Shown here one piece after another: positions 1-62,106 of a DNA stretch of 64,000 bases (its first letter is position 1; each line of letters opens with the position of its first letter). The translations under genes were made by a program, and so were the position numbers. The notes under the pieces are model-generated. The model did not search any database. It was not told the DNA's origin and worked only from the letters and a program-made list of their open reading frames with translations. Source of the stretch: Enterobacteria phage Ac3; sequence record OK040907; one strand, written 5' to 3'.

Positions 1-17
1 TTTAAAGGTTAACACAA

Positions 18-1583
18 ATGACTATCAAAACTAAAGCTGAACTTTTGAACAAATGGAAGCCATTACTGGAAGGTGAAGGTTTACCGGAAATTGCTAATAG
101 CAAACAAGCGATTATCGCTAAAATCTTTGAAAACCAGGAAAAAGATTTCCAGACAGCTCCGGAATATAAAGACGAAAAAATTGCTCAGGCATTCGGTTCT
201 TTCTTAACAGAAGCTGAAATCGGTGGTGACCACGGTTATAATGCTACTAACATTGCTGCAGGTCAGACTTCTGGCGCGGTAACTCAGATTGGCCCAGCTG
301 TTATGGGTATGGTACGTCGTGCTATTCCTAACCTGATTGCCTTCGATATTTGTGGTGTTCAGCCGATGAACAGCCCGACTGGCCAGGTATTCGCACTGCG
401 CGCAGTATACGGTAAAGACCCAATCGCTTCCGATGCTAAAGAAGCATTCCATCCAATGTATGGTCCAGATGCAATGTTCTCTGGTCAGGGTGCTGCTAAG
501 AAATTCACAGCTCTGGCTGCTAGCACACAAACCACAGTAGGTGATATCTATACTCACTTCTTCCAGGACACTGGTACTGTGTATCTGCAAGCTTCTGCTC
601 AAGTAACAATTAGTGCAAGCGCAACTGACGCAGCTAAATTAGATGCTGAAATTAAGAAACAAATGGAAGCTGGTGTACTGGTAGAAATCGCTGAAGGTAT
701 GGCTACTTCTATCGCTGAACTCCAGGAAGGTTTCAATGGTTCTACCGATAACCCATGGAATGAAATGGGCTTCCGTATCGATAAGCAAGTTATCGAAGCT
801 AAATCTCGTCAGCTGAAAGCTGCTTACTCTATCGAATTAGCACAGGACCTCCGCGCTGTTCACGGTATGGATGCTGATGCTGAACTGTCTGGCATTCTGG
901 CTACAGAAATTATGCTGGAAATCAACCGCGAAGTTGTTGATTGGATTAACTACTCAGCTCAGGTTGGTAAATCTGGTATGACCCTGACTCCGGGTTCTAA
1001 AGCTGGTGTATTTGACTTCCAGGACCCAATCGATATTCGTGGTGCTCGCTGGGCAGGTGAATCCTTTAAAGCTCTGTTGTTCCAGATTGACAAAGAAGCA
1101 GTTGAAATTGCTCGTCAGACTGGTCGCGGCGAAGGTAACTTCATTATCGCTTCCCGTAACGTAGTTAACGTTCTGGCTTCAGTTGATACCGGCATTTCTT
1201 ATGCTGCACAGGGTCTGGCTACTGGCTTTAACACTGATACTACCAAGTCAGTATTTGCTGGTGTTCTGGGTGGTAAATACCGTGTATATATCGACCAGTA
1301 TGCTAAACAGGATTATTTCACTGTAGGTTATAAAGGTCCGAACGAAATGGATGCTGGTATTTACTACGCTCCATATGTAGCTCTGACTCCACTGCGTGGT
1401 TCTGATCCGAAGAACTTCCAACCAGTAATGGGATTCAAAACTCGTTACGGTATCGGTATCAACCCATTTGCAGAATCCGCTGCTCAGGCTCCGGCTTCTC
1501 GCATTCAGAGTGGTATGCCTTCTATCCTGAACAGCCTTGGTAAGAACGCTTACTTCCGCCGTGTATATGTTAAAGGTATCTAA
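18..1583 (+). CDS. 23: major capsid protein gp23
   Basis: 521-aa ORF; N-terminus MTIKTKAELLNKWKPLLEGEG recognised as T4 gp23; length matches T4; hairpin terminator follows. Confidence 0.97.
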   Translation: MTIKTKAELLNKWKPLLEGEGLPEIANSKQAIIAKIFENQEKDFQTAPEYKDEKIAQAFGSFLTEAEIGGDHGYNATNIAAGQTSGAVTQIGPAVMGMVRRAIPNLIAFDICGVQPMNSPTGQVFALRAVYGKDPIASDAKEAFHPMYGPDAMFSGQGAAKKFTALAASTQTTVGDIYTHFFQDTGTVYLQASAQVTISASATDAAKLDAEIKKQMEAGVLVEIAEGMATSIAELQEGFNGSTDNPWNEMGFRIDKQVIEAKSRQLKAAYSIELAQDLRAVHGMDADAELSGILATEIMLEINREVVDWINYSAQVGKSGMTLTPGSKAGVFDFQDPIDIRGARWAGESFKALLFQIDKEAVEIARQTGRGEGNFIIASRNVVNVLASVDTGISYAAQGLATGFNTDTTKSVFAGVLGGKYRVYIDQYAKQDYFTVGYKGPNEMDAGIYYAPYVALTPLRGSDPKNFQPVMGFKTRYGIGINPFAESAAQAPASRIQSGMPSILNSLGKNAYFRRVYVKGI

Positions 1584-1598
1584 TCTTTGACGATTTAA

Positions 1599-1626
1599 GG
1601 GACCTTCGGGTCCCTTTAGTTGTTTT
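1599..1626 (+). terminator. hairpin GGGACC-TTCG-GGTCCC plus T-run after gene 23
   Basis: perfect 6-bp stem with TTCG tetraloop followed by T-rich tract. Confidence 0.6.
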
Positions 1627-1631
1627 TATGG

Positions 1632-1639
1632 TATAAATA
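1632..1639 (+). promoter_or_regulatory. T4-type late promoter TATAAATA upstream of gene 24
   Basis: exact TATAAATA about 28 nt upstream of the gene 24 start codon. Confidence 0.7.
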
Positions 1640-1666
1640 AATCATATAAACCAAAAGGAAAGCGCA

Positions 1667-2950
1667 ATGGCTAAAATCAACGAACTTCTGCGCGAATCAA
1701 CCACAACGAATAGCAACTCAATCGGTCGCCCAAATCTCGTTGCTTTGACTCGCGCTACCACTAAATTAATATATTCTGACATTGTAGCAACGCAAAGAAC
1801 TAATCAACCTGTTGCTGCTTTTTATGGTATCAAATACCTTAACCCAGACAACGAATTTACATTTAAAACTGGTGCTACTTATGCTGGCGAAGCTGGATAT
1901 GTAGACCGAGAACAAATCACAGAATTAACAGAAGAGTCTAAATTAACTCTCAATAAAGGCGATTTATTCAAATATAATAATATCGTTTATAAAGTATTAG
2001 AAGATACACCATTTGCTGATATTGAAGAAAGTGATTTAGAATTAGCTCTTCAGATTGCAATTGTTCTTTTAAAGGTTCGTCTATTTTCTGACGCGGCGTC
2101 AACAAGCAAATTTGAAAGCTCTGATAGTGAAATTGCGGATGCTAGATTCCAGATTAATAAATGGCAAACCGCAGTTAAATCTCGTAAACTTAAAACTGGT
2201 ATCACAGTTGAATTAGCACAAGATTTAGAAGCAAATGGATTCGATGCTCCTAATTTCTTGGAAGATTTGCTTGCAACTGAAATGGCAGATGAAATCAATA
2301 AAGATATTCTGCAGTCTTTGATTACAGTATCAAAACGTTATAAAGTTACAGGAATTACTGATACTGGATTCATTGATTTGAGTTATGCATCTGCACCTGA
2401 AGCTGGTCGTTCATTATACCGAATGGTATGTGAAATGGTTTCGCATATCCAAAAAGAATCAACTTATACAGCAACGTTCTGTGTTGCTTCAGCTCGTGCC
2501 GCTGCGATTCTTGCTGCATCAGGTTGGTTAAAACATAAACCAGAAGATGATAAGTATCTTTCACAAAATGCCTACGGGTTCTTAGCTAATGGTTTACCGC
2601 TTTATTGCGATACTAACAGCCCATTAGATTATGTAATCGTTGGCGTAGTAGAAAATATCGGTGAAAAAGAAATTGTTGGATCAATTTTCTATGCTCCGTA
2701 TACAGAAGGTCTCGACTTAGATGACCCTGAACATGTAGGTGCATTTAAAGTTGTTGTTGATCCAGAAAGCTTGCAACCGTCTATCGGTTTATTAGTTAGA
2801 TATGCTTTATCTGCAAATCCTTATACTGTAGCAAAAGATGAAAAAGAAGCAAGAGTAATTGACGGTGGAGACATGGATAAAATGGCGGGTCGTTCAGATT
2901 TGTCTGTTTTATTAGGTGTTAAATTACCAAAAATTATTATCGATGAATAA
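1667..2950 (+). CDS. 24: capsid vertex protein gp24
   Basis: 427-aa ORF paralogous to gp23 region; length equals T4 gp24; directly downstream of gene 23. Confidence 0.93.
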   Translation: MAKINELLRESTTTNSNSIGRPNLVALTRATTKLIYSDIVATQRTNQPVAAFYGIKYLNPDNEFTFKTGATYAGEAGYVDREQITELTEESKLTLNKGDLFKYNNIVYKVLEDTPFADIEESDLELALQIAIVLLKVRLFSDAASTSKFESSDSEIADARFQINKWQTAVKSRKLKTGITVELAQDLEANGFDAPNFLEDLLATEMADEINKDILQSLITVSKRYKVTGITDTGFIDLSYASAPEAGRSLYRMVCEMVSHIQKESTYTATFCVASARAAAILAASGWLKHKPEDDKYLSQNAYGFLANGLPLYCDTNSPLDYVIVGVVENIGEKEIVGSIFYAPYTEGLDLDDPEHVGAFKVVVDPESLQPSIGLLVRYALSANPYTVAKDEKEARVIDGGDMDKMAGRSDLSVLLGVKLPKIIIDE

Positions 2951-2956
2951 AACAAA

Positions 2957-2981
2957 GGGACCGAAAGGTCCCTTTTTATTT
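2957..2981 (+). terminator. hairpin GGGACC-GAAA-GGTCCC plus TTTTT after gene 24
   Basis: perfect stem-loop followed by T-run; lies between convergent genes 24 and rnlB. Confidence 0.6.
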
Positions 2982-3984
2982 AGCTCACCAACTCAATCCA
3001 AGCTGGACGAAGTACATCTTGCACCATTTTAACTAATTCCTTTTTAATCAAAGAAGGATTATCTGCTTGAGTTAGAGTAATACCTTCACGAGAAGTTTCT
3101 TCCAAAATATCTTGGACAGTTAGCCCCATCACCTTTCCAAAATCCTTTGGACCAATTTCGCCAATTTTAGAAATAACGTTATTTACTCGGTTCAGTGTAA
3201 CGTAACAAGCTAAAATTCCCACCAATTTGTTATCAGCTTCTGACAATTCAACTTTAGCTTTAATAGGCTTATCAGACTTTTTCTTTTCACTAAATTTAGA
3301 ATTCTTGCATTTGATGGCTACACGATTGCGATTAGGCAGCCAAGAAGGATAACAAGGTTTCAATACATATCCTTCAGCGGTAAATACTTCGCCTTTGGCT
3401 TCGGCATTCCAAACGCATTTATTTGCATCAACTAATCCAGCATGGTCTACTGTAAAATTATAATCTTGGACGACAGAATCTAAATCATTTGGCAATTTAA
3501 TAAGCTCTTCAAATTTACCGCGGCCTAAAAGTGGAGCGATTTTAAACCCAAATGAATTACAAAATGATTCCATCATATAATCATCGACATAAGTCACATC
3601 GCCACTTTCTGTAGTGACAATAATGTCAAATACATAAAAATCTTTATCGCCATAATCAACATTCTTCTGAATGCCAGGTCCAGCGAATTCGCCAAAAACT
3701 TGATAAGATACAACCGCTGAAATTTCCATAATATCTTGTACTGCTTTAATGGAATCAGCGTAATTCTTTAGAATAATTTCATACCCAAAGAAATCTTCAG
3801 CAGGAAGAATCGGTCCAGTACGTTTAGCGCAAGTTACTTTATCACGCTCAATAATCAATGAGAAATTTGTGCCGTGAATCTTTTCACGAGCTACCCATTC
3901 GCCGCCAGTCAATCCCAAGCTATAAAGTTTTTCAATAAATTTAGAGTTGTAATGATTTTCAAGACTGCTATACTTTTTAAACAT
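2980..3984 (-). CDS. rnlB: RNA ligase 2
   Basis: 334-aa ORF; KIHGTN adenylyltransferase motif I (KxHGxN); length equals T4 Rnl2. Confidence 0.9.
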
Positions 3985-3993
3985 AATTAATCC

Positions 3994-4275
3994 TTAAAAT
4001 GTAATTTCTAACCAATCACCATCACGCTGATCACTATTGACTTTAAAATTAAATCCTTCTTTTCTCAGCCAATCACCAATTTCTTCAGTAATCAATTTAT
4101 CACGAGCAGTACAATAATAACTAAAATATGTTTTACCTTGTTCAGCTGCTTTATTAGCAAGTTCTGAAAAATCTTTAATAAAACACTCTAGCTTAAACTG
4201 TTTACTTTTTAATGCTTTTTCACGTAATTGATTAGCAAAAGATTCATTTTCATAAAGATTACACAGTGCCGTTTT
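3994..4275 (-). pseudogene. ATG-less 93-codon AT-rich open frame (possible 5'-disrupted small gene or non-canonical start)
   Basis: open frame with T4-like codon usage (…ELANKAAEQGKTYFSYYCTARDKLITEEIGDWLRKEGFNFKVNSDQRDGDWLEITF) but no in-frame ATG/GTG; begins immediately after a TGA inside the 3' end of the adjacent GC-rich ORF. Confidence 0.3.
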
Positions 4276-4474
4276 TCACCTTTTTGTTGATGTGACGTTT
4301 GCGGTAAACCACTTTTTCGCGGGTTTCGAACTTGTTTTTAGCGGTCATGGCACGTGCCCACAGAACGGCAACTTCTTTGGCCTGCAGGTTCAGTTCACGA
4401 GCAATTTCGATGAAGCTTTTACCGGATTCGTGCAGGGTGAACACTACAACCTCGGTGCGCATAATCAATCTCAT
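4259..4474 (-). CDS. small GC-rich ORF, predicted helix-turn-helix protein with basic C-terminal tail
   Basis: 71-codon ORF (alternative start at second ATG, 4462); ESGKSFIEIARELNLQAKEVAVLW resembles a transposase/regulator-type HTH; composition clearly more G+C-rich than flanks. Confidence 0.5.
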   Translation of the reverse strand: MRLIMRTEVVVFTLHESGKSFIEIARELNLQAKEVAVLWARAMTAKNKFETREKVVYRKRHINKKVKNGTV

Positions 4475-4535
4475 GTTATCGAGTTGGTGCCATTATATAC
4501 ATCATTTTCTGATTGTGTTTTGTGTGCTTTCAAAA

Positions 4536-4556
4536 TGAAAAAGGGGCCGAAGCCCC
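4536..4556 (-). terminator. hairpin GGGGC-TTCG-GCCCC plus T-run after hoc
   Basis: perfect stem-loop on minus strand followed by TTTTTC. Confidence 0.6.
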
Positions 4557-4562
4557 TTTCGA

Positions 4563-5693
4563 TTATGGATAAGTATAGATGATACCAGTTTCTAAAGCAG
4601 TTTTATGGATGATGTATCCATTACGTGATTCTTGAACATCAACTTCTGGATAATCTTTCATCATCTTCTGAAGCGTATAACGATGCAAGTAGTACTTACT
4701 ATCTGGATCTTCAGTTTTCCAATCTTTACCTTCTTCAGTCATTTTTTGGATTTCATCCATAACCCACCAACCGCACCAGATGTAAGCTGAAGTACGATGT
4801 GGAAGAGGATGAACATAAGGTAATTCACCTTCCGGTTCTGGAGCAACTTTATCAGTTACCTGAACTTGACCCGTCGTTTTAACTGTTTTACTATCATAAT
4901 CAGTTGCAGTAACAACTACAGTAACTTCAATAGTTTGACTTCCAATAGATGAGGTATCAACTGTATATACATTAGTTGACCCTTCTACAGGAGAAGAATC
5001 TTTCTTCCATGAATACTCAATTTGCGCTTCTTCTGGAGCATCAGTGACATTAGCGGTAAATGTAGCTGAAGCATCTTGCTGAACGTTAATAGAAGGAGGA
5101 GTCAATGTAACCTGTGGATTCATTGTCTTCTTATTAACTGTTAATGATACTTCATTAGAAGTAACTTCCTTTTCATTGTAATTTTCTGCTGTTACTTGGG
5201 CTACGCATTTAATTCTTTTTACTCCACTTGTAGTTGGAGTATAGCTAAATGTAGAGTTAGTTTCTCCACCAACTTGAGAATCATCTACATACCATTTATA
5301 TGTAGCAGACGCTCCATCAGGTTGAGAAGCTAAGGCAGCAGTAAATTGAACTGGGGTTCCAATTACTCCAGCAGCGGGACTATTGGGAGTTACTGCCAAT
5401 GTAGTTGTCTGAGTTTTGTTTTTGACTGTGATAGTTGTAGTAGCTTCTGCTGTTTCAGCTTCAGATTCTGGAACTGTATTTGTTGCAACAACTTTAATAG
5501 TCTTTTGACCAGCAGGACCTTTTAATACATAATCAAAAGTTGCTTCAGACCCATCTTGTGGAGCATTATCTACACTCCAAGCATAAGTAATAGTTCCACC
5601 TCCAGTTTCACCACTGGGTGCAGCAGTAAACTGCTTGGTTTCATCAATAACCCCTGTCGGTGTTTTAGGAGTTATATCAACTGTAAAAGCCAT
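4563..5693 (-). CDS. hoc: highly immunogenic outer capsid protein Hoc
   Basis: 376-aa ORF, same length as T4 Hoc; T/S/V-rich Ig-like repeat composition; position between rnlB and inh. Confidence 0.88.
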   Translation of the reverse strand: MAFTVDITPKTPTGVIDETKQFTAAPSGETGGGTITYAWSVDNAPQDGSEATFDYVLKGPAGQKTIKVVATNTVPESEAETAEATTTITVKNKTQTTTLAVTPNSPAAGVIGTPVQFTAALASQPDGASATYKWYVDDSQVGGETNSTFSYTPTTSGVKRIKCVAQVTAENYNEKEVTSNEVSLTVNKKTMNPQVTLTPPSINVQQDASATFTANVTDAPEEAQIEYSWKKDSSPVEGSTNVYTVDTSSIGSQTIEVTVVVTATDYDSKTVKTTGQVQVTDKVAPEPEGELPYVHPLPHRTSAYIWCGWWVMDEIQKMTEEGKDWKTEDPDSKYYLHRYTLQKMMKDYPEVDVQESRNGYIIHKTALETGIIYTYP

Positions 5694-5702
5694 AAGTTAT
5701 CC

Positions 5703-6383
5703 TTATTTTAATGTTACGAAAGAAGAATTGCGTGTTTCACGAATTAAAACTGATCCGTCGCGATTAATGTAATAAATTAAGCTAAACAAAGTTTGGTGTG
5801 CTGACGCGTGTTCAAAACTAGTTGGATGAGATTTCCAATCAGGAGTTTCAGCGATCCATTGATAAATCCACCAAGGAACCGTACAGAATCCTGGATTTTT
5901 CCCCAATAATTGAAGATTCGGGCTAAAGTTTTCCGGAAGAGTAAATACAGACGGCTTTTCAGATTCAATAATCTTATCTACAGCTTGTTCAAACTTTTCT
6001 TCAACAAAAGGAGTGTCTTCAATCAAAACATCAGTATTTTCAGGAATTTTATCCGTTTCTACCACTTCAATTTTAATATCAGATTTAACTGGAGAATCAA
6101 TCAGAAGTGCTGCTTCTGGATTAACTTCTTCATCGTCATATTTTAATCCCTCTGCAGCATCAGCAGCATCAATTAAGTCTTTAATAGATAACCCATCAGT
6201 CTCTGGCATAGGTTCACTAGCGAGCTTCTGGAGGGCTTCTTCAATATCAACAACGATATTATCAAAAGATTTATTCTTTTTGACCTTTATACCAAATTGC
6301 TCAGCATATTCAGCTAATTTAGCTTTAGCTTCTTTATTATCATCAAGAGCCTTTAACTCTGCAATATAATCTTTATCTATCAT
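5703..6383 (-). CDS. inh: inhibitor of prohead protease Inh
   Basis: 226-aa acidic ORF in the T4 inh position between hoc and uvsW. Confidence 0.75.
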   Translation of the reverse strand: MIDKDYIAELKALDDNKEAKAKLAEYAEQFGIKVKKNKSFDNIVVDIEEALQKLASEPMPETDGLSIKDLIDAADAAEGLKYDDEEVNPEAALLIDSPVKSDIKIEVVETDKIPENTDVLIEDTPFVEEKFEQAVDKIIESEKPSVFTLPENFSPNLQLLGKNPGFCTVPWWIYQWIAETPDWKSHPTSFEHASAHQTLFSLIYYINRDGSVLIRETRNSSFVTLK

Positions 6384-6406
6384 AATATTTCCTCAGTATA
6401 AATATA

Positions 6407-6414
6407 GATATATT
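6407..6414 (+). promoter_or_regulatory. T4-type late promoter TATAAATA upstream of uvsW
   Basis: exact TATAAATA about 20 nt upstream of the uvsW start. Confidence 0.65.
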
Positions 6415-6433
6415 TATTACATGGTATTTAGAC

Positions 6434-7945
6434 ATGACTGACATTAAAGTACATTTTTATGATTTTAGTCACGTGAGAATTGATTGTGAAGAAAGTACAT
6501 TTCATGAACTCCGTGATTTCTTTAGCTTCGAAGCTGATGGGTATCGTTTTAATCCGAAATACAAATATGGCCACTGGGATGGACGAATCCGTCTTTTAGA
6601 TTATAATCGTCTTCTTCCATTCGGCTTAGTCGGGCAAATTAAAAAGTTCTGTGATAACTTTGGCTATAAAGCCTGGATTGACCCACAAATTAACGAAAAA
6701 GAAGAATTATCAAGAAAAGATTTTGATGAATGGCTTTCTAAATTAGAAATCTATTCAGGAAATAAAAGAATTGAACCACACTGGTATCAAAAAGATGCAG
6801 TGTTCGAAGGATTAGTTAATCGTCGTAGAATTCTTAATCTTCCAACATCCGCTGGTAAATCTTTAATTCAGGCTCTGCTCGCTCGGTATTATTTGGAAAA
6901 TTACGAAGGTAAAATTCTTATCATTGTTCCAACAACTGCTCTAACAACTCAGATGGCTGATGACTTCGTTGACTATCGTTTATTCAGTCATGCAATGATA
7001 AAGAAAATTGGTGGCGGAGCATCAAAAGATGATAAATATAAAAATGATGCACCAGTCGTTGTTGGTACATGGCAAACTGTAGTTAAACAACCAAAAGAAT
7101 GGTTCTCACAGTTTGGAATGATGATGAATGATGAATGTCATCTTGCTACAGGAAAAAGTATTTCATCTATCATATCAGGTTTAAATAACTGCATGTTCAA
7201 ATTTGGTCTATCTGGTTCATTACGTGATGGCAAAGCCAATATCATGCAGTATGTTGGAATGTTTGGTGAAATATTTAAGCCAGTAACGACTTCTAAGTTA
7301 ATGGAAGATGGACAAGTAACTGAGCTAAAAATTAATAGTATTTTTCTTCGCTATCCCGATGAGTTCACTACTAAATTAAAGGGAAAAACTTATCAAGAAG
7401 AAATAAAAATTATTACGGGGCTTAGTAAAAGAAATAAATGGATCGCTAAATTAGCTATTAAGCTTGCGCAAAAAGATGAAAACGCTTTTGTCATGTTTAA
7501 ACATGTATCACATGGTAAAGCTATTTTCGATTTAATTAAAAATGAATATGATAAAGTTTATTACGTATCAGGGGAAGTTGATACCGAAACCCGCAATATA
7601 ATGAAAACCTTAGCTGAAAATGGTAAAGGAATAATTATAGTAGCTAGTTATGGTGTATTTTCTACTGGTATTTCAGTTAAAAATCTGCACCACGTTGTTT
7701 TAGCACACGGTGTTAAATCAAAAATCATTGTATTACAAACAATCGGTCGTGTATTACGTAAGCATGGTTCTAAGACAATAGCAACAGTCTGGGACCTCAT
7801 AGATGATTGTGGTGTTAAGCCAAAATCTGCTAATACGAAAAAGAAATATGTTCATTTGAACTATCTTTTAAAACACGGCATTGATCGTATTCAGCGCTAC
7901 GCAGATGAAAAATTTAATTACGTAATGAAAACAGTTAATTTATAA
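6434..7945 (+). CDS. uvsW: UvsW DNA/RNA helicase (SF2)
   Basis: 503-aa ORF; Walker A-like LPTSAGKS and DExH-like NDECH motifs; T4 gene order. Confidence 0.92.
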   Translation: MTDIKVHFYDFSHVRIDCEESTFHELRDFFSFEADGYRFNPKYKYGHWDGRIRLLDYNRLLPFGLVGQIKKFCDNFGYKAWIDPQINEKEELSRKDFDEWLSKLEIYSGNKRIEPHWYQKDAVFEGLVNRRRILNLPTSAGKSLIQALLARYYLENYEGKILIIVPTTALTTQMADDFVDYRLFSHAMIKKIGGGASKDDKYKNDAPVVVGTWQTVVKQPKEWFSQFGMMMNDECHLATGKSISSIISGLNNCMFKFGLSGSLRDGKANIMQYVGMFGEIFKPVTTSKLMEDGQVTELKINSIFLRYPDEFTTKLKGKTYQEEIKIITGLSKRNKWIAKLAIKLAQKDENAFVMFKHVSHGKAIFDLIKNEYDKVYYVSGEVDTETRNIMKTLAENGKGIIIVASYGVFSTGISVKNLHHVVLAHGVKSKIIVLQTIGRVLRKHGSKTIATVWDLIDDCGVKPKSANTKKKYVHLNYLLKHGIDRIQRYADEKFNYVMKTVNL

Positions 7946-7958
7946 GGGCTTCGGCCCT

Positions 7959-8201
7959 TTGGAGAAAAAGATGTTACTAGAATTTAAACAATTTCTTTAT
8001 GAAGCTTCTATTGATGAATTTATGGGTAAAATTGCCTCTTGCCAAACGATAGAAGGTTTAGAAGAACTTGAAGCTTATTATAAGAAAAGAGTTAAAGAAA
8101 CTGAATTAAAAGATACTGATGACATCTCAGTCAGAGATGCTTTGGCAGGAAAAAGAGCTGAATTAGAAGATTCAGACGATGAAGTAGAAGAAAGCTTTTA
8201 A
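7959..8201 (+). CDS. uvsW.1: UvsW.1 small acidic protein
   Basis: 80-aa ORF immediately after uvsW as in T4. Confidence 0.75.
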   Translation: MEKKMLLEFKQFLYEASIDEFMGKIASCQTIEGLEELEAYYKKRVKETELKDTDDISVRDALAGKRAELEDSDDEVEESF

Positions 8202-8256
8202 ATTAAAAAAGGCCCAACCAAAAAGGAAGGGCCAAAACTATAGACTAAAGGTCACA

Positions 8257-8424
8257 CTATAGCAAAAGTTGTGTTTCATTTAATTGTTCTTCCGAACTTT
8301 CTGAAACTGGTAGTTCTTTAATGTAATTATAGCAAGGCCCAGGATGTACAGGACCTTTGTCTGTTTCAACAACCAATGCAGAATCGATTGGAGTTTTACA
8401 GACAACACAAATCTTATCTGACAT
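8257..8424 (-). CDS. small Cys-containing protein (55 aa), not in the ORF track
   Basis: hand-translated MSDKICVVCKTPIDSALVVETDKGPVHPGPCYNYIKELPVSESSEEQLNETQLLL; TATAAATA on minus strand about 30 nt upstream. Confidence 0.5.
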   Translation of the reverse strand: MSDKICVVCKTPIDSALVVETDKGPVHPGPCYNYIKELPVSESSEEQLNETQLLL

Positions 8425-8449
8425 GATTGTCTCCTCTGAATTATATATC

Positions 8450-8457
8450 TATTTATA
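8450..8457 (-). promoter_or_regulatory. T4-type late promoter TATAAATA (minus strand)
   Basis: reverse complement of TATTTATA reads TATAAATA upstream of the 55-aa ORF. Confidence 0.5.
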
Positions 8458-8547
8458 ACCCCATCTTAAAGCGCATTTCTTGTACACGCTTTAAACATGC
8501 TTCCATTTCTGCTAAAAGTCTAAATACTTCTTTATAATTTGTCATAT

Positions 8548-8775
8548 TTACCCCATATCTCTCATATGCATATCAATGCCCATATCTTTAGAATAAAAAT
8601 ATTCATCAAGATATCCGGCAAATTTTCCTTTAATATAAAGGACATCTTCACCACACGGGTGGTCGGCCAGGATACGAATATCCTGACGCTTAAGATTATG
8701 CTTTTTCATTAAGAATTGAATTTCCGTTTCAAATTCTTCTTCATAATTAAAAGCGTCATCAATGTTATATCTCAT
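8548..8775 (-). CDS. small protein upstream-adjacent to uvsY (uvsY.-2-like)
   Basis: 75-aa ORF abutting uvsY. Confidence 0.6.
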   Translation of the reverse strand: MRYNIDDAFNYEEEFETEIQFLMKKHNLKRQDIRILADHPCGEDVLYIKGKFAGYLDEYFYSKDMGIDMHMRDMG

Positions 8776-9188
8776 TATTTTCCAGCCTCAAATGCCCGCA
8801 TGTCTTGAATATGCTTAATAGCAAATCCTCGTGATTTGATAGCATCAAGAGCTCCGCTACAGAAATCTAATAAAATTCCCCAATATTGTAATGAAGTATC
8901 AACCTTTAAAACATCCTTATCAGCTGATAGAACTGTTTTCATTTCTGATTTCTCGTAACGATCCATACTAAATTCATCACCATCTCCTCGTCCCGAGTAG
9001 TAGTCTAATTTAGCTTTAAGAGCAACTTTTTTCTGTGCTTCAATTCTAAGCATTTCCTTTTTAATACTTGAATGCTTATTAAGCCATTTACTATATAACA
9101 TCACATTATTAGCTGCTTCATACTGTAATTTAGTCGAATCTATAAACACATCTTTCTTCAATTCTTCTTGAAGATCTTCTAATCTCAT
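8775..9188 (-). CDS. uvsY: recombination mediator UvsY
   Basis: 137-aa ORF, same length as T4 UvsY; N-terminus MRLEDLQEELKKD. Confidence 0.9.
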   Translation of the reverse strand: MRLEDLQEELKKDVFIDSTKLQYEAANNVMLYSKWLNKHSSIKKEMLRIEAQKKVALKAKLDYYSGRGDGDEFSMDRYEKSEMKTVLSADKDVLKVDTSLQYWGILLDFCSGALDAIKSRGFAIKHIQDMRAFEAGK

Positions 9189-9254
9189 ATTGTTCTCTAT
9201 TCAATTGTTATTGGATGGACTTAGATTCATTATACCACGTTTATACGTGAAGCA

Positions 9255-9653
9255 TTATACTCTATTACTGGAAGCCAGTTGTAGTTTTATCTGCTCAATA
9301 TCATCAGGGTTATCGATGACTGAAAAGCGTATTTCTACTATCAAAGTATAATCATCATAAACCGGTATTACATTAACTGCTAATTTATCAATACGTGGCT
9401 CATAGTTTCTTACTGCGCTTTCGATATTACGCTCAACCGTGTCAGCAGTAAGAGGAGTCATATTCTCAAAAAGTTGGTCAGATAAATCGCATCCAAATTC
9501 AGGGTCAAACGGTCTTGAACCTTTTCTTGTTGTAATAATTCCTAAAAGACTATTTTTAATTGACCTTAATCCAAGTGATCTTGAAACGTCTTTGTTCCAA
9601 TCCATTTTCATCTCTGGGTCAATATCAGAATAAAGCTTATTAATATTTGCCAT
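9255..9653 (-). CDS. 25: baseplate wedge protein gp25
   Basis: 132-aa ORF, T4 gp25 length; position upstream of uvsY. Confidence 0.9.
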   Translation of the reverse strand: MANINKLYSDIDPEMKMDWNKDVSRSLGLRSIKNSLLGIITTRKGSRPFDPEFGCDLSDQLFENMTPLTADTVERNIESAVRNYEPRIDKLAVNVIPVYDDYTLIVEIRFSVIDNPDDIEQIKLQLASSNRV

Positions 9654-10279
9654 TACAATAGCTCAAAGAATTCTTTGAGTCCTCTTATTACATGAGCGTG
9701 GGTTTTTCCACACTCTGGACACTTAATTGGAACAGCCAAATAAACAGTAGGCTTTAAAAGCATATCTTTTATAGCTACAATATCTGACTCTGTGATGATA
9801 GAATATAAATCTTCCAATTCTTTTTCATTTAAGTCTTCAACTGGAATGCTTTCACCGTTAGCATGAATCGTTTCTATACATGATACTATCATGTGGGCTA
9901 TATTTTTATCATCAAAAATTTTAGGGTAATGGAATTTAATTTTAATGTCACCCAGTGTATACCAGAGGTCTTCTGGTGCATCTATTTGTGTATGTAATAG
10001 ATTTATATGGGTTGGTATTTCAGTTCCACAGGTGCACTTCCAGGAGTTTTCGTGATTAACTTCTCCAAGAGAATGCGCCCATAAATGAATCAGTAATAGT
10101 TCTGATTCTTGGCGGTTTAAATCTTTTGCATTTGTACAGTCTTTGATTAGCTTTTTAACAATCTCTTCTACTGAACCATTCTTTTTAGCAGTAATAAGTT
10201 CTAGATATTCTTTAAGAGTAAATGCGCGACAGTTGATTATTTTAGAACCAACTCTCACATCAAATTTGTATTCATACAT
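9653..10279 (-). CDS. 26: baseplate hub protein gp26
   Basis: 208-aa ORF, T4 gp26 length; overlapping stop/start with gene 25. Confidence 0.85.
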   Translation of the reverse strand: MYEYKFDVRVGSKIINCRAFTLKEYLELITAKKNGSVEEIVKKLIKDCTNAKDLNRQESELLLIHLWAHSLGEVNHENSWKCTCGTEIPTHINLLHTQIDAPEDLWYTLGDIKIKFHYPKIFDDKNIAHMIVSCIETIHANGESIPVEDLNEKELEDLYSIITESDIVAIKDMLLKPTVYLAVPIKCPECGKTHAHVIRGLKEFFELL

Positions 10280-10305
10280 ATTTAGCTCCTTTATTTATCA
10301 TATCT

Positions 10306-16889: not shown

Positions 16890-16920
16890 TTTGTGTTCCT
16901 CATGTTATGTCAGTAAGACT

Positions 16921-16950
16921 ACTATAACACAACATGAGGGACTTGTAAAC
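16921..16950 (-). promoter_or_regulatory. T4-type early promoter (GTTTAC, 18-nt spacer, TATAGT)
   Basis: minus strand GTTTACaagtccctcatgttgtgtTATAGT; part of an exact 54-bp repeat also found at 32174..32227. Confidence 0.7.
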
Positions 16951-19010: not shown

Positions 19011-21107
19011 TTATCCTTGAACGAACTTGTAAGGCATGTTTGTAATATCTATGCAAGACGCAATAATTCCAAGAGATGATTCTACTTTCTGTTTAACGTT
19101 TGATGAAACAAATGATGCAAAGTCAACTCTGTCTTCTATTTCAGTATCACCTGTCATTGCAACTACTTCACCGGTTTCCATTAAATGGTCTCCGTCATAG
19201 ATTACCGATTCGGTGAGCTCTTCCGTGGTCATAACTTCAGCTTGAATGAGTTTTGTATTATTAGATGTTGTTCCGTCATTATTAGAAGCATCAGTTATTT
19301 TATTAACTTTGACCATCAATCCACGCGGTAGAATAACTTCAGCTTCTGTTGCTATTCCGAGACTTCCTGGATATACAACATTAACTTTATGAGCTCCATC
19401 AATTGCCCATCCTATTTGAACTTTAACGTATTCAGGATTTTCTTTATACGCTCTTATTTCGTTTGGATTAATAGTTATTCCTTCTTCATTTTTATCAACT
19501 GTTAATTCATTGCGAGCTTCTGGTTCTAAAAGACCAATACCAGCATGTGTGATTCCAAAACGTCCAAAAATGATAGGAGTTAAAGAAGTAGATACAAAAT
19601 TTCTGAAGTAGAACACTTTATTTTTAACTAACGCTTCATATATAGGAGCAGTCATACTTTGAGCACGATAAACTGTAATGCCTTCTGGTATACGGTCACC
19701 ATTTTCAAAAGCTGAATCTAAGTTATTTATAGCAGATTCAATTTCTTTTTCACTCATTACATCATATCGTTCTGGATTGTAACGACCTAAAAGAAGATTA
19801 TTGATGTCAGTATATCCTGAACCACAATATTCTCTAATGCCACGCTTTTGTGATGGAGTATATTTAGAACCATCGCGGGCAATAGTAATATCAATCATTG
19901 GACCAGCACCAATTCCAGAAAAACTGTAAATCATTCGTTTGAGGAATTTAGTTTTTGCTGCGTTCCAGGAATTTTTAGTTATTTCTTCCCAGACTTCATC
20001 TGGTTGTCCTTTACGATTTTTATTATGATTAGCAAGCCATTTATCTTTATAATCTTCAAAGAATTGATTTACAGCTGCTGCGTATTTCTCTAAACATTTT
20101 ATTGAAGTAGTTGGTTCATTTTTAATTGCATTAAAAATTACTTCTTTAATTTTTTCTGAAACTTCACCGACTTGACTCATTGGAAAGAATTTATAATCAT
20201 AGTGAAGTTCATCTGCCGTTCCTTCAGCAATAATTTTTGCTGCCTTTGTTTTAGAAGCTAATGAATTAATTCCAATTTTCATTTCTTCTGCTTCGGGAAT
20301 TAAAGGTGCAGTAGCTGGTTTATTAAAATTAGCTGCTGTAGATTCATACTTCTGGAATAATTCACTTTCAAATCTAGAAGATTCCAATGACTGACTTTGT
20401 GCAATTGCTCTACGGGAAATTTTAACTTTAACGATTACGGCTTGGTCAGAACGTTTATCATTTTCTTGTGCAATAGATGCAGCAATTGCCTCATTTTTGG
20501 TTACTTGAGCTCCAGTATCTTTATTGATATAAACATCACCGACCTTCGATTCAACTTTAGTAAAGAGCTCGGTGCTAATTTCTGGAACTCCTGGAATGTC
20601 TTCTAGTGATACATTTTTACGATGTATAAGAATATATGCATACTTTTTATCGTAATCCCAGAGTTCCTTAAGAAGGACGTATCTGCCACCTGAACGACTG
20701 CGGATGAGTCTATCAGCAATAAGTTGAATTTGTCGAGCTTGACCTGCGGTTTTAGACTTAAGAATACGAAGCATGCAGGCATCAATTTTATATTGACGCA
20801 TTGTTTGCATTGCAACAGTAAAAACTGAATTGATATAATTAATCGGGCTTGGACCAAGACCTTTTAATTTAGCAATTGAACCTTTAGCAGTTAATGTAAA
20901 AGGAACAATATGCATCATTTTATCGCCCATCTTTAAATCACGATTAGTATCACCTCCAGATGTATAGGTACATAAACGAAAGCCTGGTTGTTCAATTGCA
21001 TCATCAACATGAACTGAAAAAATTTGTGGTATTTTCTTCTTTGGATTTAAGTTTGTAATCGGAAGAGTAGTATCTTCGTCAAATAATTCTGTAATGAGTT
21101 CCATCAT
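19011..21107 (-). CDS. alt: Alt-like ADP-ribosyltransferase, paralog 1
   Basis: 698-aa ORF; N-terminus MMELITELFDEDTTLPITNLNPKKKIPQIF; motifs YRAQ, FVSTS, EAEVILPRG; late promoter upstream; adjacent to gene 30 as T4 alt. Confidence 0.88.
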   Translation of the reverse strand: MMELITELFDEDTTLPITNLNPKKKIPQIFSVHVDDAIEQPGFRLCTYTSGGDTNRDLKMGDKMMHIVPFTLTAKGSIAKLKGLGPSPINYINSVFTVAMQTMRQYKIDACMLRILKSKTAGQARQIQLIADRLIRSRSGGRYVLLKELWDYDKKYAYILIHRKNVSLEDIPGVPEISTELFTKVESKVGDVYINKDTGAQVTKNEAIAASIAQENDKRSDQAVIVKVKISRRAIAQSQSLESSRFESELFQKYESTAANFNKPATAPLIPEAEEMKIGINSLASKTKAAKIIAEGTADELHYDYKFFPMSQVGEVSEKIKEVIFNAIKNEPTTSIKCLEKYAAAVNQFFEDYKDKWLANHNKNRKGQPDEVWEEITKNSWNAAKTKFLKRMIYSFSGIGAGPMIDITIARDGSKYTPSQKRGIREYCGSGYTDINNLLLGRYNPERYDVMSEKEIESAINNLDSAFENGDRIPEGITVYRAQSMTAPIYEALVKNKVFYFRNFVSTSLTPIIFGRFGITHAGIGLLEPEARNELTVDKNEEGITINPNEIRAYKENPEYVKVQIGWAIDGAHKVNVVYPGSLGIATEAEVILPRGLMVKVNKITDASNNDGTTSNNTKLIQAEVMTTEELTESVIYDGDHLMETGEVVAMTGDTEIEDRVDFASFVSSNVKQKVESSLGIIASCIDITNMPYKFVQG

Positions 21108-29405: not shown

Positions 29406-30795
<1,390 letters not shown>

Positions 30796-30799
<4 letters not shown>

Positions 30800-32169: not shown

Positions 32170-32197
32170 AAAGTCCTCATGTTATGTCAGTAAGACT

Positions 32198-32227
32198 ACT
32201 ATAACACAACATGAGGGACTTGTAAAC
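32198..32227 (-). promoter_or_regulatory. T4-type early promoter (GTTTAC, 18-nt spacer, TATAGT)
   Basis: identical to the promoter at 16921..16950; within exact 54-bp repeat. Confidence 0.7.
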
Positions 32228-40179: not shown

Positions 40180-40539
40180 TTATATTATCTCCCATCGAAA
40201 AGGGTCAGGAGCATATCCGATAGAGTTAATCATTTTAACTAAAGTTACCATTCCTTTGTTAACTGCTTGTGCGATTTCATCAAAAACTTCATCGCTATCA
40301 TCATAAAGGTCATTAAAAAGTTCTAACACGTTCTTCTGAACTTTTAATTTATGACCAACAATCTCGCCTACAGTAAATTCGTTTCCGCCGATTCCAGTGT
40401 AAAACGTAATTACACCAGTTAACAGACTTTCGCGAGAATCTAGGTCATGTGATAAATTAATATAAGCCATCCCGGGTGCAGTTTTAAGTTGGCAACGAAT
40501 TCTTACTTGGGTAATTCCGGTTACATGAATGTCGGACAT
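40180..40539 (-). CDS. hypothetical protein (frd.x-like)
   Basis: ORF track 40180..40680; start moved to MSDIHVTG (119 aa) preceded by AAGGAAAA; upstream part of the track ORF overlaps the neighbouring GC-rich gene out of frame. Confidence 0.55.
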   Translation of the reverse strand: MSDIHVTGITQVRIRCQLKTAPGMAYINLSHDLDSRESLLTGVITFYTGIGGNEFTVGEIVGHKLKVQKNVLELFNDLYDDSDEVFDEIAQAVNKGMVTLVKMINSIGYAPDPFRWEII

Positions 40540-40549
40540 ATTATTTTCC

Positions 40550-40789
40550 TTAAGCTTTCTTGGCAACTTTCCAGTCAGCTTTGAACTGATCGACGTCGCT
40601 GTGATGGATCCAGAAGCCGGAGCTGGAACCGTCTTCATAGAGTGGGCAACCGTCACATTCATCTTCCCAACCCATATCACGCAGGAGATGTTCTGCCTTT
40701 TCGATCAGCTCGGAATCTTTACCAATGATGTTGAAGTACCATTTGCCGCGTACTTCAGAGTCTTTAATGGACTGACGCTGCAGACGCAT
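40550..40789 (-). CDS. small GC-rich early protein with CxxC-like pair
   Basis: ORF track 40550..40879 (TTG start); real start taken as ATG at 40789 preceded by GAGGAG and an early promoter; 79 aa, E. coli-like codons. Confidence 0.55.
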   Translation of the reverse strand: MRLQRQSIKDSEVRGKWYFNIIGKDSELIEKAEHLLRDMGWEDECDGCPLYEDGSSSGFWIHHSDVDQFKADWKVAKKA

Positions 40790-41542: not shown

Positions 41543-41773
41543 TTACTGTTCGATGAGACCCATGTAGAATTCCGCATCTTCGGAGTCCATACCGTCGCAG
41601 TATTCGTTAGCCATGAAGCGGGTCAGGTCCTCCAGTGGACCCTCAATAACAATGCTAAAGTTACAATAGTTCGGGTCATCATGGATGGAAGTAATAGACA
41701 GCTCCGGGTAACGGTTGCGGATAATTTCCTCGATGTATTCGAAATCAACGATGTCGATGTCTACTTTAGCCAT
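41543..41773 (-). CDS. small GC-rich acidic early protein
   Basis: ORF track 41543..41836; start moved to MAKVDIDIV (76 aa) preceded by AAGAGGAA and an early promoter. Confidence 0.55.
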
Positions 41774-41919: not shown

Positions 41920-42828
41920 TTACAGGTCGTTCAGGAGGTCATCCAGGTCGGTATCGTCGGCGCTGGAAGAGGAGCCGCTAGAGGAAGACATGAAGTCATC
42001 TTCGGTTTTAGTGTTAAAATCGTCAACGTTAAAGGCGTCCAGGTCATCCGCTACCTTATCGGCTTTCTTAGCCGCAGTAGCCGCAGCACCGCCCATCACA
42101 GCAGTGCCCATAACCTGACCGAACTTGGTGTTGAGTTCCTCAAAAGATTTAAATTTATCTTTGGAGGTCATCTCAGACAGATCTACCATCTGCTCAAACA
42201 GTTCTTTTTGGAAAGATTCGTCATCGATGTTCGGGATAGCAGACTGGTTCAGAAATTTGCTCTCGTCGTAATTGGAGAAACCAGAAACCTGTTTAACCTT
42301 CAGAACGAAGTTGGCACCCTCCCACGGGCAGGTGACGTCGACCGGGGTTTCACCCATCTCCACGTCCACCGCAATCATAGCGTTAATTTTATCCCAGATT
42401 TTCTTACCAAAGCGGTATTTGAAAACCTTACCCTCGTTTTCTGGCGCAGCTGGATCCTTTACAACCAGGATGTTAGCCCAGTAAGAGGTTTTACGTTTCA
42501 CCAGGCCGTATTCTTTATTGTCGGTATTATACAGATCGTTTTTGGAAATGTACTGACACACCGGGCAAGAGTCGTAGTCGCCGTGGGTGGAAGAACAGTT
42601 TTCGATGTACCATTTGCCGTTTTTCTTAAAACCGTGGTTCACCAGGATAGCGAACGGAGCCTGTTCGTCATTTTTGCTCGGCAGGAAGCGGATCACCGCC
42701 TGACCGTTGCCCGCGTTGTCCAGTTTCAGTTTCCATTCGCCTTTGTCCTCAGAGCTGAAGCCACCTTTGTTGCCCGCCAGCTTGGCCATCTGCGCAGCCA
42801 GTTCTGCCGTGCTCTTACGCTTGAACAT
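41920..42828 (-). CDS. 32: single-stranded DNA-binding protein gp32
   Basis: 302-aa ORF; N-terminus [17 protein letters not shown]; zinc-ligand region [12 protein letters not shown]; acidic Ser/Asp-rich C-terminus. Confidence 0.95.
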
Positions 42829-50914: not shown

Positions 50915-53900
50915 ATGGCTACTTTAAAACAAATACAATTTAAAAGAAGCAAAACCGCAGGAGCACGTCCTGCCGCTTCAGTATTAGCCGAAGGTGAATT
51001 GGCTATAAACTTAAAAGACCGTGTACTTTTTACTAAAGATGACCAAGGAAATATTATTGATCTGGGTTTTGCTAAGGGCGGTAGTATTGACGGGAATGTT
51101 ATTCATATAGGAAACTATAACCAAACTGGTGATTATACTTTAAATGGCGCATTAACTCAGACAGGTAATTTTAATTTAACTGGTATTGCTCGAGTAACTC
51201 GCGATATTATTGCCGCTGGGCAGATTATGACTGAAGGCGGAGAACTTATTACAAAAAGTTCAGGTACAGCGCATGTTCGTTTTTTCGATGGCAATAGTCG
51301 CGAACGCGGAATCATTTATGCCCCGGCTAATGATGGTTTAACTACACAAGTACTTAATATCAGGGTTCAAGACTATGCCGCTGGTAGCGAAACGACTTAT
51401 CGATTTTCAGGCAGTGGCCTATTTACTTCACCTGAAGTATCAGCATGGAAATCTATTTCGTCTCCACAAATTCTGACCGATAAAGTTATTACAAATGGGA
51501 AGAAGACAGGCGATTATGATATCTATTCATTATCAAATAACACTCCAATGGCAGAAGGCGAAACGGCTATTAACCACCTCCGTGTTATGCGAAATGCTGT
51601 AGGAGCAGGTATTTTCCACGAAGTTAATGTTAATGACGGAATAACCTGGTATTCCGGACATGGCTTAGACACTTATCTTTGGTCGTTTAACTGGGCCGGT
51701 GGATTGAAAGCTGGTCATTCTATTGCTGTGGCCTTCCTCACGGTTCTAAAATTATTCAGAAATGGGCACGGCTTCTATTGCTTTAGGAGAGTAGATGATA
51801 CCGGATTTAAATGGCATCAGGATGGATATTATTTCAGCGTTAATAATGGAACAAAAACATTTTTATTTAGTCCTAGTGAAACAACTAGCCTAAGAAAATT
51901 TGTAGCTGGATATTCTACTAACGGAACCGATTTAACGACTCCTCCAACTGAAAACTATGCTCTTGCTACTGTCGTGACATATCACGATAATAACGCGTTT
52001 GGAGATGGTCAGACTCTTTTAGGATATTATCAAGGCGGTAATTATCATCACTATTTCCGCGGTAAAGGTACTACAAACATTAATACTCACGGCGGTTTGT
52101 TAGTTATTACTCCCGGTAATGTAGATGTGGTCGGCGGCATGGTTACCATTGATGGTAAAAATTATGCTTCTAGTGTGCTTTTTAAAGGAAATACTACAGG
52201 ATATAGTTCAGTTGATAATATAGAGCTCAAAGTTTGGGGTGACACTTTTAATACAGTAGGTGGTACTCGTAAAAACGTAATGGAAACATCTGATGCTACT
52301 GGCTGGATGCATTATATTCAACGAACTACAGCAGGTAAAGTTGAGTCCTATTTAAATGGTACCATGAATGTAAATGAAAGCATCAACGTCAGTAAAGAAG
52401 TTAACGCCTCTGGCACTATTGCTAGTAATGCTGTCAATGCGCTTCGCATTTGGAATGCAGATTATGGAGCTATTTTTAGACGTTCAGAAGGAAGTCTTCA
52501 TATTATTCCAACTGCTTATGGTGAAGGCAAAAATGGTGATATCGGTCCACTTCGCCCGTTTAGTATGGCTTTAGATACCGGTAAAGTTACTATTCCAGAT
52601 TTACAATCAAGTTACAATACGTTCGCTGCGAACGGCTATATTAAATTTGTTGGTCATGGAGCGGGTGCCGGCGGTTATGACATTCAATATGCTCAAGCGG
52701 CTCCTATTTTCCAGGAAATTGATGGATGCTGTAAGCAAATATTTATCCCTATTGTTAAACAGAAGTTTTTAAATGGTAAAGCCGTTTGGTCTTTAGGTAC
52801 TGAAATTAATTCTGGTACATTTGTTTTACATCATCTGAAAGAAGATGGACACAAGGTCATACATCAAGATTTAATGCTGACGGTACAGTTAATTTCCCTG
52901 ATAACGTTCAAGTCGGTGGTGGTGAAGCTACTATTGCTCGTAATGGTAATATTTTCTCGGATATTTGGAAACTGTTTACTTCTGCTGGAGACACTACAAA
53001 TATTCGGTGATGCAATAGCTACTCGTGTTGCTAAAGAAGGTGATACGATGACCGGTAGGTTGACTTTATCAGCTGGAAATGATGCACTTGTTTTAACTGC
53101 AGGCGTGGGTGCTTCATCACACATCCGTAGTGATGTAGGTGGTATAGGTAACTGGTATATAGGCAAAGGCGGCGGCGACAATGGTCTAGGTTTTTACAGT
53201 TACATTACACAAGGCGGTGTATACATAACAAATAACGGCGAAATAGCGCTTTCTCCTCAAGGTCAAGGAACATTTAATTTTAATAGGGATCGCCTTTATA
53301 TAAATGCTAGTCAATGGGTTGCACATAAATCTGGCGCTTGGGGTGACCAATGGGGCTTAGAAGCTCCTGTATTTGTGGATTTTGGTAGTGTCGGTAATGA
53401 TAGTTATTATCCTATTATTAAAGGAAAATCTGTTATTACGAATGAAGGATACATATCTGGCGTTGATTTTGGTATGCGTCGCATTACTAATACATGGGCA
53501 CAAGGTATTATTCGTGTAGGTAACCAGGAAAACGGTTCTGACCCACAAGCTATCTATGAATTCCACCACAATGGAGTTATGTATGTTCCTAACATGGTTA
53601 AAACCGGAGCAAGATTATCGGCTGGCGGTGGTGACCCGGTGTGGACTGGACCATGTCTTGTTATTGGTGATAATGTATCCGGATTAGTTCATGGTGGTGA
53701 TGGGCGAATTAACATGGTTGCAAATGGAGCGCATATTGCTTCGTGGTCTTCATCTTATCATTCTCATCCTGGCCTTTGGGATTCAAACGGTGCTTTGTGG
53801 ACGGAAGTTGGCAAAGCAGTTATTTCTCATGGTCATTTAGTTCAGGCGAATGACAACTATTCAACATATGTCCGCGATGTTTATGTCCGCTCTGATATTC

Positions 53901-54226
53901 GTGTTAAAAAGAACCTCGTTAAATTTGAAAATGCTTCTGAGAAGCTTTCTAAAATTAACGGTTACACTTATATGCAGAAACGTGGAACAGATGAAGAAGG
54001 TAATCAGAAATGGGAACCTAACGCAGGTTTGATAGCTCAAGAAGTTCAAGATATTTTACCAGAATTCGTTGAAGGTGACCCGGATGGTGAAGCTTTACTT
54101 CGTTTGAACTATAACGGTGTAATTGGTTTAAATACAGCTGCAATCAATGAGCATACTGCAGAAATTGCAGAACTTAAGTCAGAGATTGAAGAGCTTAAAA
54201 AATTAGTTAAATCATTGTTAAAATAA
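50915..54226 (+). CDS. 37: long tail fibre distal subunit gp37 (T2-type, C-terminal intramolecular-chaperone-like domain)
   Basis: 1103-aa ORF; DTMTGRL repeat; C-terminal SDIRVKKNL…[15 protein letters not shown]…coiled coil resembles autoproteolytic chaperone domains; internal segment 52810..53010 looks frame-shifted (see findings). Confidence 0.88.
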
Positions 54227-54231
54227 TAAGA

Positions 54232-54245
54232 GGGGCTTCGGCCCC
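54232..54245 (+). other. stem-loop GGGGC-TTCG-GCCCC between genes 37 and 38
   Basis: perfect 5-bp stem with TTCG loop; no strong T-run, so probably an RNA structure rather than a terminator. Confidence 0.4.
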
Positions 54246-54257
54246 TTGGAGGTTTAT

Positions 54258-55031
54258 ATGGCAGTTGAAGGACCGTGGGTAGGATGGTCTGCGAGGGTAC
54301 AGACTGGAGATCCTTGGATGGGTGGTGCCGCGCAGAGATTGAGAATGGGAATTCCGTTTTGGATGAGTAATATGATAGGTCGATCTGTTGAAATAATTCA
54401 CACGCTTGGAGCAGACCATAACTTCAATGGTCAATGGTTCCGAGATAGATGTTTTGAGGCAGGTAGTACACCTATAGTGTTTAATATCACTGGAGATTTA
54501 GTATCATATTCTAAAGATGTTCCTTTATTCTTCATGTACGGAGATACACCGAATGAATATGTTCAGTTGAATATACACGGCGTAGCGATGTATGGCCGTG
54601 GCGGTAATGGCGGTAGCAATAGTCCTGGTTCAGCTGGAGGTCATTGTATTCAAAACGATATTGGTGGGAGACTAAGAATTAATAATGGCGGAGCTATTGC
54701 AGGCGGTGGCGGCGGTGGCGGTGGCGGTAACAGGGGTCGACTAGTATTTGGTGGTGGCGGTGGTCGCCCATTCGGTAGTGGCGGGTCTTCCCTCTCTCAC
54801 ATGAGTGCTGGTGCAACCGCCGGCACCATTTACGCTCCGGGTGCAGGATCTGTCGGTGAGGGGTCTCTTAGTGCATATACAGGCGGGTCTGGTGGTGAAG
54901 TTGGCTCCGCAGGAGGTAGAAATACTCACGGTACCGGTACAGAATATGACGGCGGAGCTGCTGGTTATGCTGTTATAGGGTCGTCTCCAACGTGGATAAA
55001 TGTTGGAGCAATATATGGTCCAAGAGTATAA
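54258..55031 (+). CDS. 38: receptor-recognising adhesin gp38 (T2-type, glycine-rich motifs)
   Basis: ORF track starts at 54246; ATG at 54258 follows GGAGG; conserved N-terminal half then poly-Gly blocks ([25 protein letters not shown]) typical of T2/K3-type gp38 adhesins. Confidence 0.85.
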
Positions 55032-61842: not shown

Positions 61843-62106
61843 TCACAGCTCAATTTCAGCGATTTTCATTTCATTGCTGTTGATTGCTTCCTTCAGAGAA
61901 TCGGACAGAATGACGTTCCAATGATCGTTCATATGACCGTTCACCAGACGGGTGATTTCCTCCGGGGTGGAGAAGTACGGCTGATCAGATTCCCAGTGAG
62001 ACAGACCCAGACGGGTATAGATCATACCTTCGTCATCAGAGGAGTATTCTACGCTGACGAATTCATCAGTGATTTTGTGTTTTGCATAGTAGAATTTAAA
62101 CTTCAT
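61843..62106 (-). CDS. small GC-rich early protein
   Basis: ORF track 61843..62205; start moved to MKFKFYYAKHK (87 aa) downstream of an early promoter; CGT/CTG/CCG codons. Confidence 0.55.
   Translation of the reverse strand: MKFKFYYAKHKITDEFVSVEYSSDDEGMIYTRLGLSHWESDQPYFSTPEEITRLVNGHMNDHWNVILSDSLKEAINSNEMKIAEIEL

Follow-up and report, generated by a model that had tools for sequence, protein, structure and literature searches.

What produced a GC-rich open reading frame (ORF) that abuts an AT-rich open frame with no canonical start codon, between rnlB and hoc of a T-even phage? The pair lies in a DNA stretch of 64,000 nucleotides (the window), which is that of a Tequatrovirus of the RB51/RB68 type. 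An earlier note, made from the sequence alone, read the pair as a module inserted into, or fused onto, the 5′ end of a native small gene and considered a +1 shift at the TAA stop codon of the GC-rich ORF. The genes concerned belong to a minus-strand series (inh, hoc, 24.3, 24.2, and rnlB), unlike gene 24, which is on the plus strand. The locus contains the following features:

2980-3984, minus strand: rnlB, neighbour of the startless frame
3994..4272, minus strand: gene 24.2 (92 aa in relatives), startless here, identical to RB51 from codon 6 onward
4259..4272, minus strand: 14-nt overlap of 24.3 and 24.2, with substitutions at 4260, 4262, 4265, 4268, and 4271
4277..4282, minus strand: AAGGTG Shine-Dalgarno of 24.2, within the 3′ end of 24.3 and intact despite the recoding
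4259..4462, minus strand: gene 24.3 (DUF2774, 67 aa), synonymously recoded from codon 2 through the stop
4463..4474, minus strand: upstream in-frame ATG segment (MRLIM...), 12 bases, unrecoded and identical to RB51
4539..4560, minus strand: native intrinsic terminator after hoc, GGGGCTTCGGCCCC followed by a T run, unchanged relative to RB51
4563-5693, minus strand: hoc, neighbour of the GC-rich ORF

The minus-strand ORF 4259..4474 is present as an open frame of 71 aa, and its GC-rich, host-like codon composition is as the earlier note described it. GC content is 0.485 across 4259-4462, against 0.279 in the adjoining 3994-4258, and it is 0.357 in rnlB and 0.381 in hoc. The GC3 of the ORF is 0.59, while the ORFs of the window (n = 87) have a median of 0.254 with a standard deviation of 0.09. 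Total GC of 4259-4462 corresponds to a z score of 2.8 and is equalled by 65 of 6049 other 204-nt windows (~1%), found mainly within gene 23 and gp38. Total GC alone is a moderate outlier and is not unique; it is GC3 and the comparison with phage RB51 that make the region exceptional.

The ORF is gene 24.3. Its protein matches Pfam DUF2774 (PF11242) over the full model (1-63/63) with 107.7 bits at a cut-off of 29.2 (E 3.2e-31) and belongs to PHROG 1566 (E 6.8e-33). A helix-turn-helix-like protein had been proposed from the sequence, and the LuxR/GerE HTH model (PF00196) gives a sub-threshold signal of 18.3 bits against a gathering cut-off of 23.5 (E 0.0017), which makes an HTH-like character a plausible lead at most; the clear match is DUF2774. 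Searches of solved structures with gp24.3 and gp24.2 returned no significant relatives. Both gp24.3 and gp24.2 (PHROG 2416) are ordinary proteins.

The open frame from 4474 stands, while a start at 4474 does not: relatives annotate the start of 24.3 at 4462, and the recoding begins directly after the ATG at that position. Gene 24.3 keeps its place between hoc and 24.2/rnlB, on the same strand, in RB51, slur07, PP01, RB68, T4, UAB_60, fPS-65, and ATK48. In T4 (NC_000866), 24.3 spans 1416-1586 and is annotated with 56 aa; it lacks the 11-residue segment AMTAKNKFETR of the RB51-type 67-aa protein, a natural in-frame indel within DUF2774.

A megablast search with 3985-4562 recovers the interval in 513 phage records, where it is annotated as 24.3 (DUF2774) and 24.2. 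In 498 phage (Tequatrovirus) records, native 24.3-24.2 DNA shows 95% identity or more, whereas none of 50,697 phage records matches the GC-rich ORF alone at more than 78.3%. Among naturally divergent clades, Mosigvirus (ATK48) is the nearest, at ~68-69% nucleotide identity and with a clearly diverged protein.

Alignment of the 3985-4562 interval with RB51 (FJ839693.1), slur07, and PP01 locates the change. The window equals RB51 through the annotated 24.3 ATG and again from the first base past the 24.3 stop, and inside the 24.3 coding sequence (CDS) the two differ at nearly every third position. Ungapped comparison of window positions 1-10303 with RB51 gives exactly 53 mismatches, all at 4260-4459. 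All 53 are synonymous: although 26% of the nucleotides differ, the encoded protein and RB51 gp24.3 are 100% identical. Relative to RB51, 24.3 gains in GC (0.358 to 0.485) and in GC3 (0.279 to 0.588), and its stop codon is TAA instead of TGA. The last changed base is 4260, within that stop codon, and everything downstream is RB51-identical; the composition does switch exactly at the stop of the ORF, as had been noticed. These changes in 24.3/24.2 occur in none of the other ~500 records.

The same alignment disposes of an inserted or fused module. Gene 24.3 has the same length and position as in RB51, and the interval is collinear without gaps. It holds no extra DNA and no non-orthologous gene, and the resident gene 24.3 shows 26% nucleotide change with 0 amino-acid changes. 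GC-atypical islands, or "morons", share with the window a local anomaly of GC and codon usage with sharp borders. Unlike such islands, the window neither gains nor loses length or genes, its protein is identical to the resident one, and codon 2 and the stop codon mark the borders. In position, order, strand, and lengths, the pair is that of the T4 type (RB51 FJ839693.1, RB68, and T4 NC_000866), with the same hoc terminator and AAGGTG Shine-Dalgarno; it differs from this type in the 53 synonymous substitutions in 24.3, the change of the 24.2 ATG to ACG, and the changes in 24.2 codons 2-5.

The neighbouring open frame, 3994..4275, runs for 93 codons without an in-frame ATG or GTG, so its description as startless is accurate. 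Its only start-like codons are ACG (codon 2), CTG (codon 4), ATT, and TTG. RB51 gp24.2 falls in PHROG 2416 (E 3.7e-41), and the window frame equals it from residue 6 to the stop. In seven of seven relatives (RB51, slur07, PP01, UAB_60, fPS-65, T4, and Mosigvirus ATK48), the 24.2 ATG lies 4-5 nt downstream of AAGGTG; in the Tequatroviruses with the full-length 24.3 frame (RB51, slur07, PP01, UAB_60, and T4), it precedes the 24.3 stop by 14 nt. In place of this ATG, common to all seven, the window reads ACG (4272-4270).

Gene 24.2 is without a start codon because the synonymous recoding of overlapping 24.3 converted its ATG to ACG. The AAT to AAC change in a 24.3 Asn codon is the same single T-to-C change, and four further overlap substitutions, likewise synonymous for 24.3, turn 24.2 codons 2-5 from EQYD to ALCN. 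The GC-rich ORF is the cause of its neighbour's missing start, as the earlier note had supposed, through a 14-nt overlap instead of an insertion; the alignment to T-even relatives that it had put forward as a check was decisive; the relatives have an intact 24.2 ATG. Reinitiation at the nearby ATGs 4253 and 4247 was considered and rejected: these codons lie in the third frame, yield a 14-aa peptide only, and are also present in native phages.

A programmed +1 frameshift, or another recoding event, at the 24.3 stop could produce a 24.3-24.2 fusion that needs no 24.2 start. Gene 24.2 is read in the +1 frame of 24.3, and its open frame spans the TAA, which resembles prfB-type frameshifting, where a downstream +1 open frame overlaps the stop. 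Unlike the prfB type, however, the window has no CUU-U-type slippery site before the stop (ACU GUG UAA U) and no conservation, and relatives end 24.3 with TGA and translate 24.2 independently from its own Shine-Dalgarno and ATG (AAGGTG-N4/5-ATG). The startless state is unique to the window, is explained by a single T-to-C recoding change, and represents an arrangement without evolutionary history for selection to act on. A frameshift at this site is exceedingly improbable.

Gene 24.3 is one of six such cases. When the whole window is aligned to RB51 with gaps allowed, differences are limited to a few patches, and six of them coincide exactly with single RB51-annotated CDSs:

4259-4462, minus strand: 24.3, 53 substitutions, protein identical
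30497-30799, minus strand: RB32ORF217c homologue, 80 substitutions, protein identical
40550-40789, minus strand: frd.1, 54 substitutions, protein identical
41543-41773, minus strand: frd.3, 51 substitutions, protein identical
41920-42828, minus strand: gene 32 (ssDNA-binding protein), 190 substitutions, protein identical
61843-62106, minus strand: RB51ncORF272c homologue, 64 substitutions, protein identical

Each of the six has 40-nt flanks that equal RB51 exactly, an unchanged length, a protein that is 100% identical, and 21-27% of its bases changed. Across all six there are 492 substitutions and 0 amino-acid changes; GC3 rises from ~0.23-0.29 in RB51 to 0.54-0.62 in the window, and TGA stops become TAA in three of four. 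Three genes have a longer ORF with an upstream ATG, yet their recoding sets in at the annotated ATG (4462 vs 4474, 41773 vs 41794, and 62106 vs 62205), and therefore the edits followed gene annotation. The possibility that the recoding of frd.1 lengthened the neighbouring ORF 40180-40662 was dropped, since RB51 has the same open frame.

The new codons are those preferred by E. coli. Of the 705 internal codons of the six genes, 424 differ from RB51, and 17 E. coli-disfavoured codons go from 92 uses to 0 (AGA, AGG, CGA, CGG, GGA, GGG, ATA, CTA, CTT, TTA, TTG, AGT, TCA, TCG, ACA, CCC, and CCT). The recoded genes use only CGT/CGC for Arg, only GGT/GGC for Gly, only CTG/CTC for Leu, and only TCT/TCC/AGC for Ser. 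Serine codons switch between the TCN and AGY boxes 28 times, each switch needing two or three simultaneous base changes, and there are 5 AGA-to-CGY and 11 TTA-to-CTS swaps of more than one base. The new codon proportions appear to agree with the E. coli table for highly expressed genes, as if they had been sampled from that table.

A second signal was overwritten in the RB32ORF217c homologue. Its recoding changes TTAGGAATT to CTCGGTATT at ~30503-30511 (minus strand), and the AGGA Shine-Dalgarno of downstream pseT (polynucleotide kinase/phosphatase) is gone. The pseT ATG at 30497-30495 (minus strand) survives the TGA-to-TAA stop change. A scan of the recoded CDSs for lost late-promoter, -10, and MotA-box motifs found none lost. 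The 24.2 start and the pseT Shine-Dalgarno were both overwritten, and the design therefore treated each CDS as an isolated string, blind to context.

The backbone around the six genes is natural. The surrounding ~58 kb differs from RB51 at three isolated positions only. The isolated single-nucleotide differences at 20404 and 41304 are RB68 alleles, so that the unrecoded backbone counts as a natural phage of the RB51/RB68 group rather than a duplicate of the RB51 record. At 10304 there is a single-base C insertion relative to both RB51 and RB68, directly upstream of a late-promoter-like TATAAATA before gene 51; the window reads ATATCTTATAAATA where the others read ATATTTATAAATA. A perfect 54-nt direct repeat (16897-16950 and 32174-32227) is intergenic, with its copies ~15 kb apart, near alt.-3/alt.-2 and near alc/rnlA, and it is also present in RB51. 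It carries an internal inverted repeat (CCTCATGTT...AACATGAGG) and may be a shared regulatory or terminator-like element.

A further patch, in genes 37/38 (50956-54566, plus strand), is ~86-89% identical to RB51 and 99.7% identical to phage Ac3 AF060870.1. Its changes fall in all codon phases, its GC gains about equal its losses, and its breakpoints lie inside genes. This patch is accordingly a natural mosaic of the distal tail fibre and adhesin, which gives an RB51/RB68-like backbone with Ac3-type host-range genes. Ac3 figures in the literature on gp38 adhesins of the T4 superfamily (PMC3157838).

This patch bears on natural horizontal replacement, in which 24.3 would have recombined from a higher-GC T4-like phage or a host homologue and overwritten the 24.2 start. 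T-even genomes are mosaic, a real mosaic patch is present in this very window, and the GC rise and host-like codons superficially resemble foreign DNA. However, the true 37/38 mosaic, with its mixed codon phases, balanced GC, and intragenic breakpoints, looks different from the six CDSs. A donor would have had to supply a protein 100% identical to RB51 gp24.3, although the nearest divergent homologue, that of Mosigvirus ATK48, has a diverged protein, and no donor is found in any collection searched. The breakpoints fall at codon 2 and the stop in six unlinked genes, the flanks of 24.3 carry 0 changes across ~10 kb, and neutral change could not have made the 28 serine box swaps without passing through non-synonymous intermediates. 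Horizontal replacement is in effect refuted, and neither drift nor recombination in nature can put 492 synonymous changes and 0 non-synonymous ones into six CDSs alone while the ~58 kb around them differs at only three isolated positions.

The recoded DNA is also absent from all public collections searched. Contig collections of viruses, genomes, and metagenomes contain no exact match to recoded 24.3, and plasmids (PLSDB) contain no match; recoded gene 32 has no plasmid match in PLSDB and is at most ~80% identical to any phage record. These searches bear on an assembly chimera, in which reads from codon-optimised phage-gene expression constructs would have been merged into a phage assembly. 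Codon-optimised phage genes such as gene 32 are often cloned, which speaks for this scenario. The junctions, however, are seamless at the start ATG and the stop in six separate genes, with native flanks and no vector sequence; PLSDB holds no matching plasmid; and an assembler would not splice ~25% divergent sequence at exact codon boundaries. A chimera of this kind is hardly credible.

The best explanation is synthetic codon optimisation: almost certainly, a natural RB51/RB68-group backbone had six annotated CDSs, including 24.3, swapped in place for synthetic codon-optimised versions. The differences are synonymous and bounded by CDSs, use host-preferred codons only, and are absent from the natural collections searched. 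Each CDS was rewritten from codon 2 to the stop with synonymous E. coli-preferred codons, keeping protein, length, and position. Each was handled alone, with overlaps ignored, and the AAT to AAC change in 24.3 removed the 24.2 ATG. The outcome is a startless AT-rich frame adjoining a GC-rich ORF, the pattern first noticed. This pattern is a design artefact and not a natural feature. The exact boundaries and the recurrence in six CDSs point to a codon-optimisation algorithm guided by annotation as the probable agent.

There are precedents for such work. Synthetic codon optimisation and genome refactoring of phages include refactored T7 and "decompressed" phiX174, and those who refactor a genome take explicit care to pull overlapping genes and regulatory signals apart or to protect them. 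The window shares with refactoring and codon optimisation the whole-CDS synonymous rewrite, the host codon set, the TAA stops, the multi-base swaps, and the limits at annotated CDSs. Unlike in refactored phages, the 24.3/24.2 overlap and the pseT Shine-Dalgarno are overwritten. A search of literature and records for such a design found none, and a literature search on recoded RB51/T4 phage, DUF2774, and 24.2/24.3 returned nothing relevant and no description of such a construct.

Whether the edit exists in silico only or was physically built is roughly evenly balanced, with a lean towards a design in silico because no rationale for the six-gene set is evident. Besides gene 32, the set consists of four small hypothetical ORFs and one further ORF of unknown function, with no evident functional rationale. 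In E. coli, the ACG class of non-canonical start codons reaches ~0.1-1% of AUG (bioRxiv 10.1101/063800), and 24.2 would therefore be close to null if this DNA physically exists. In a physical phage, 24.2 would be translated at about 1% of normal or less, from the ACG behind the surviving AAGGTG. It is possible, though rather unlikely, that the recoded genome was physically built and is viable, with an unintended near-null 24.2 allele (ACG behind an intact Shine-Dalgarno, altered N-terminus) and a knock-down of the pseT Shine-Dalgarno.

A sharp GC and codon island beside a startless ORF mimics horizontal transfer, gene fusion, or frameshifting, and here it is the footprint of optimisation. Its signature is made up of purely synonymous change (100%), borders that coincide with the limits of CDSs, the disappearance of every host-disfavoured codon, and serine swaps between codon boxes. 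Where this signature is recognised, such sequences will not be presented as new biology. GC or codon anomalies at the coordinates of the five other recoded CDSs have the same artificial cause, and later analyses of the window must regard none of the six as native DNA. Should the phage physically exist, its designers need to be aware of the lost 24.2 start codon and the lost pseT Shine-Dalgarno. If it was physically built and is viable, then 24.2 would be either dispensable or still made at a low level from ACG.
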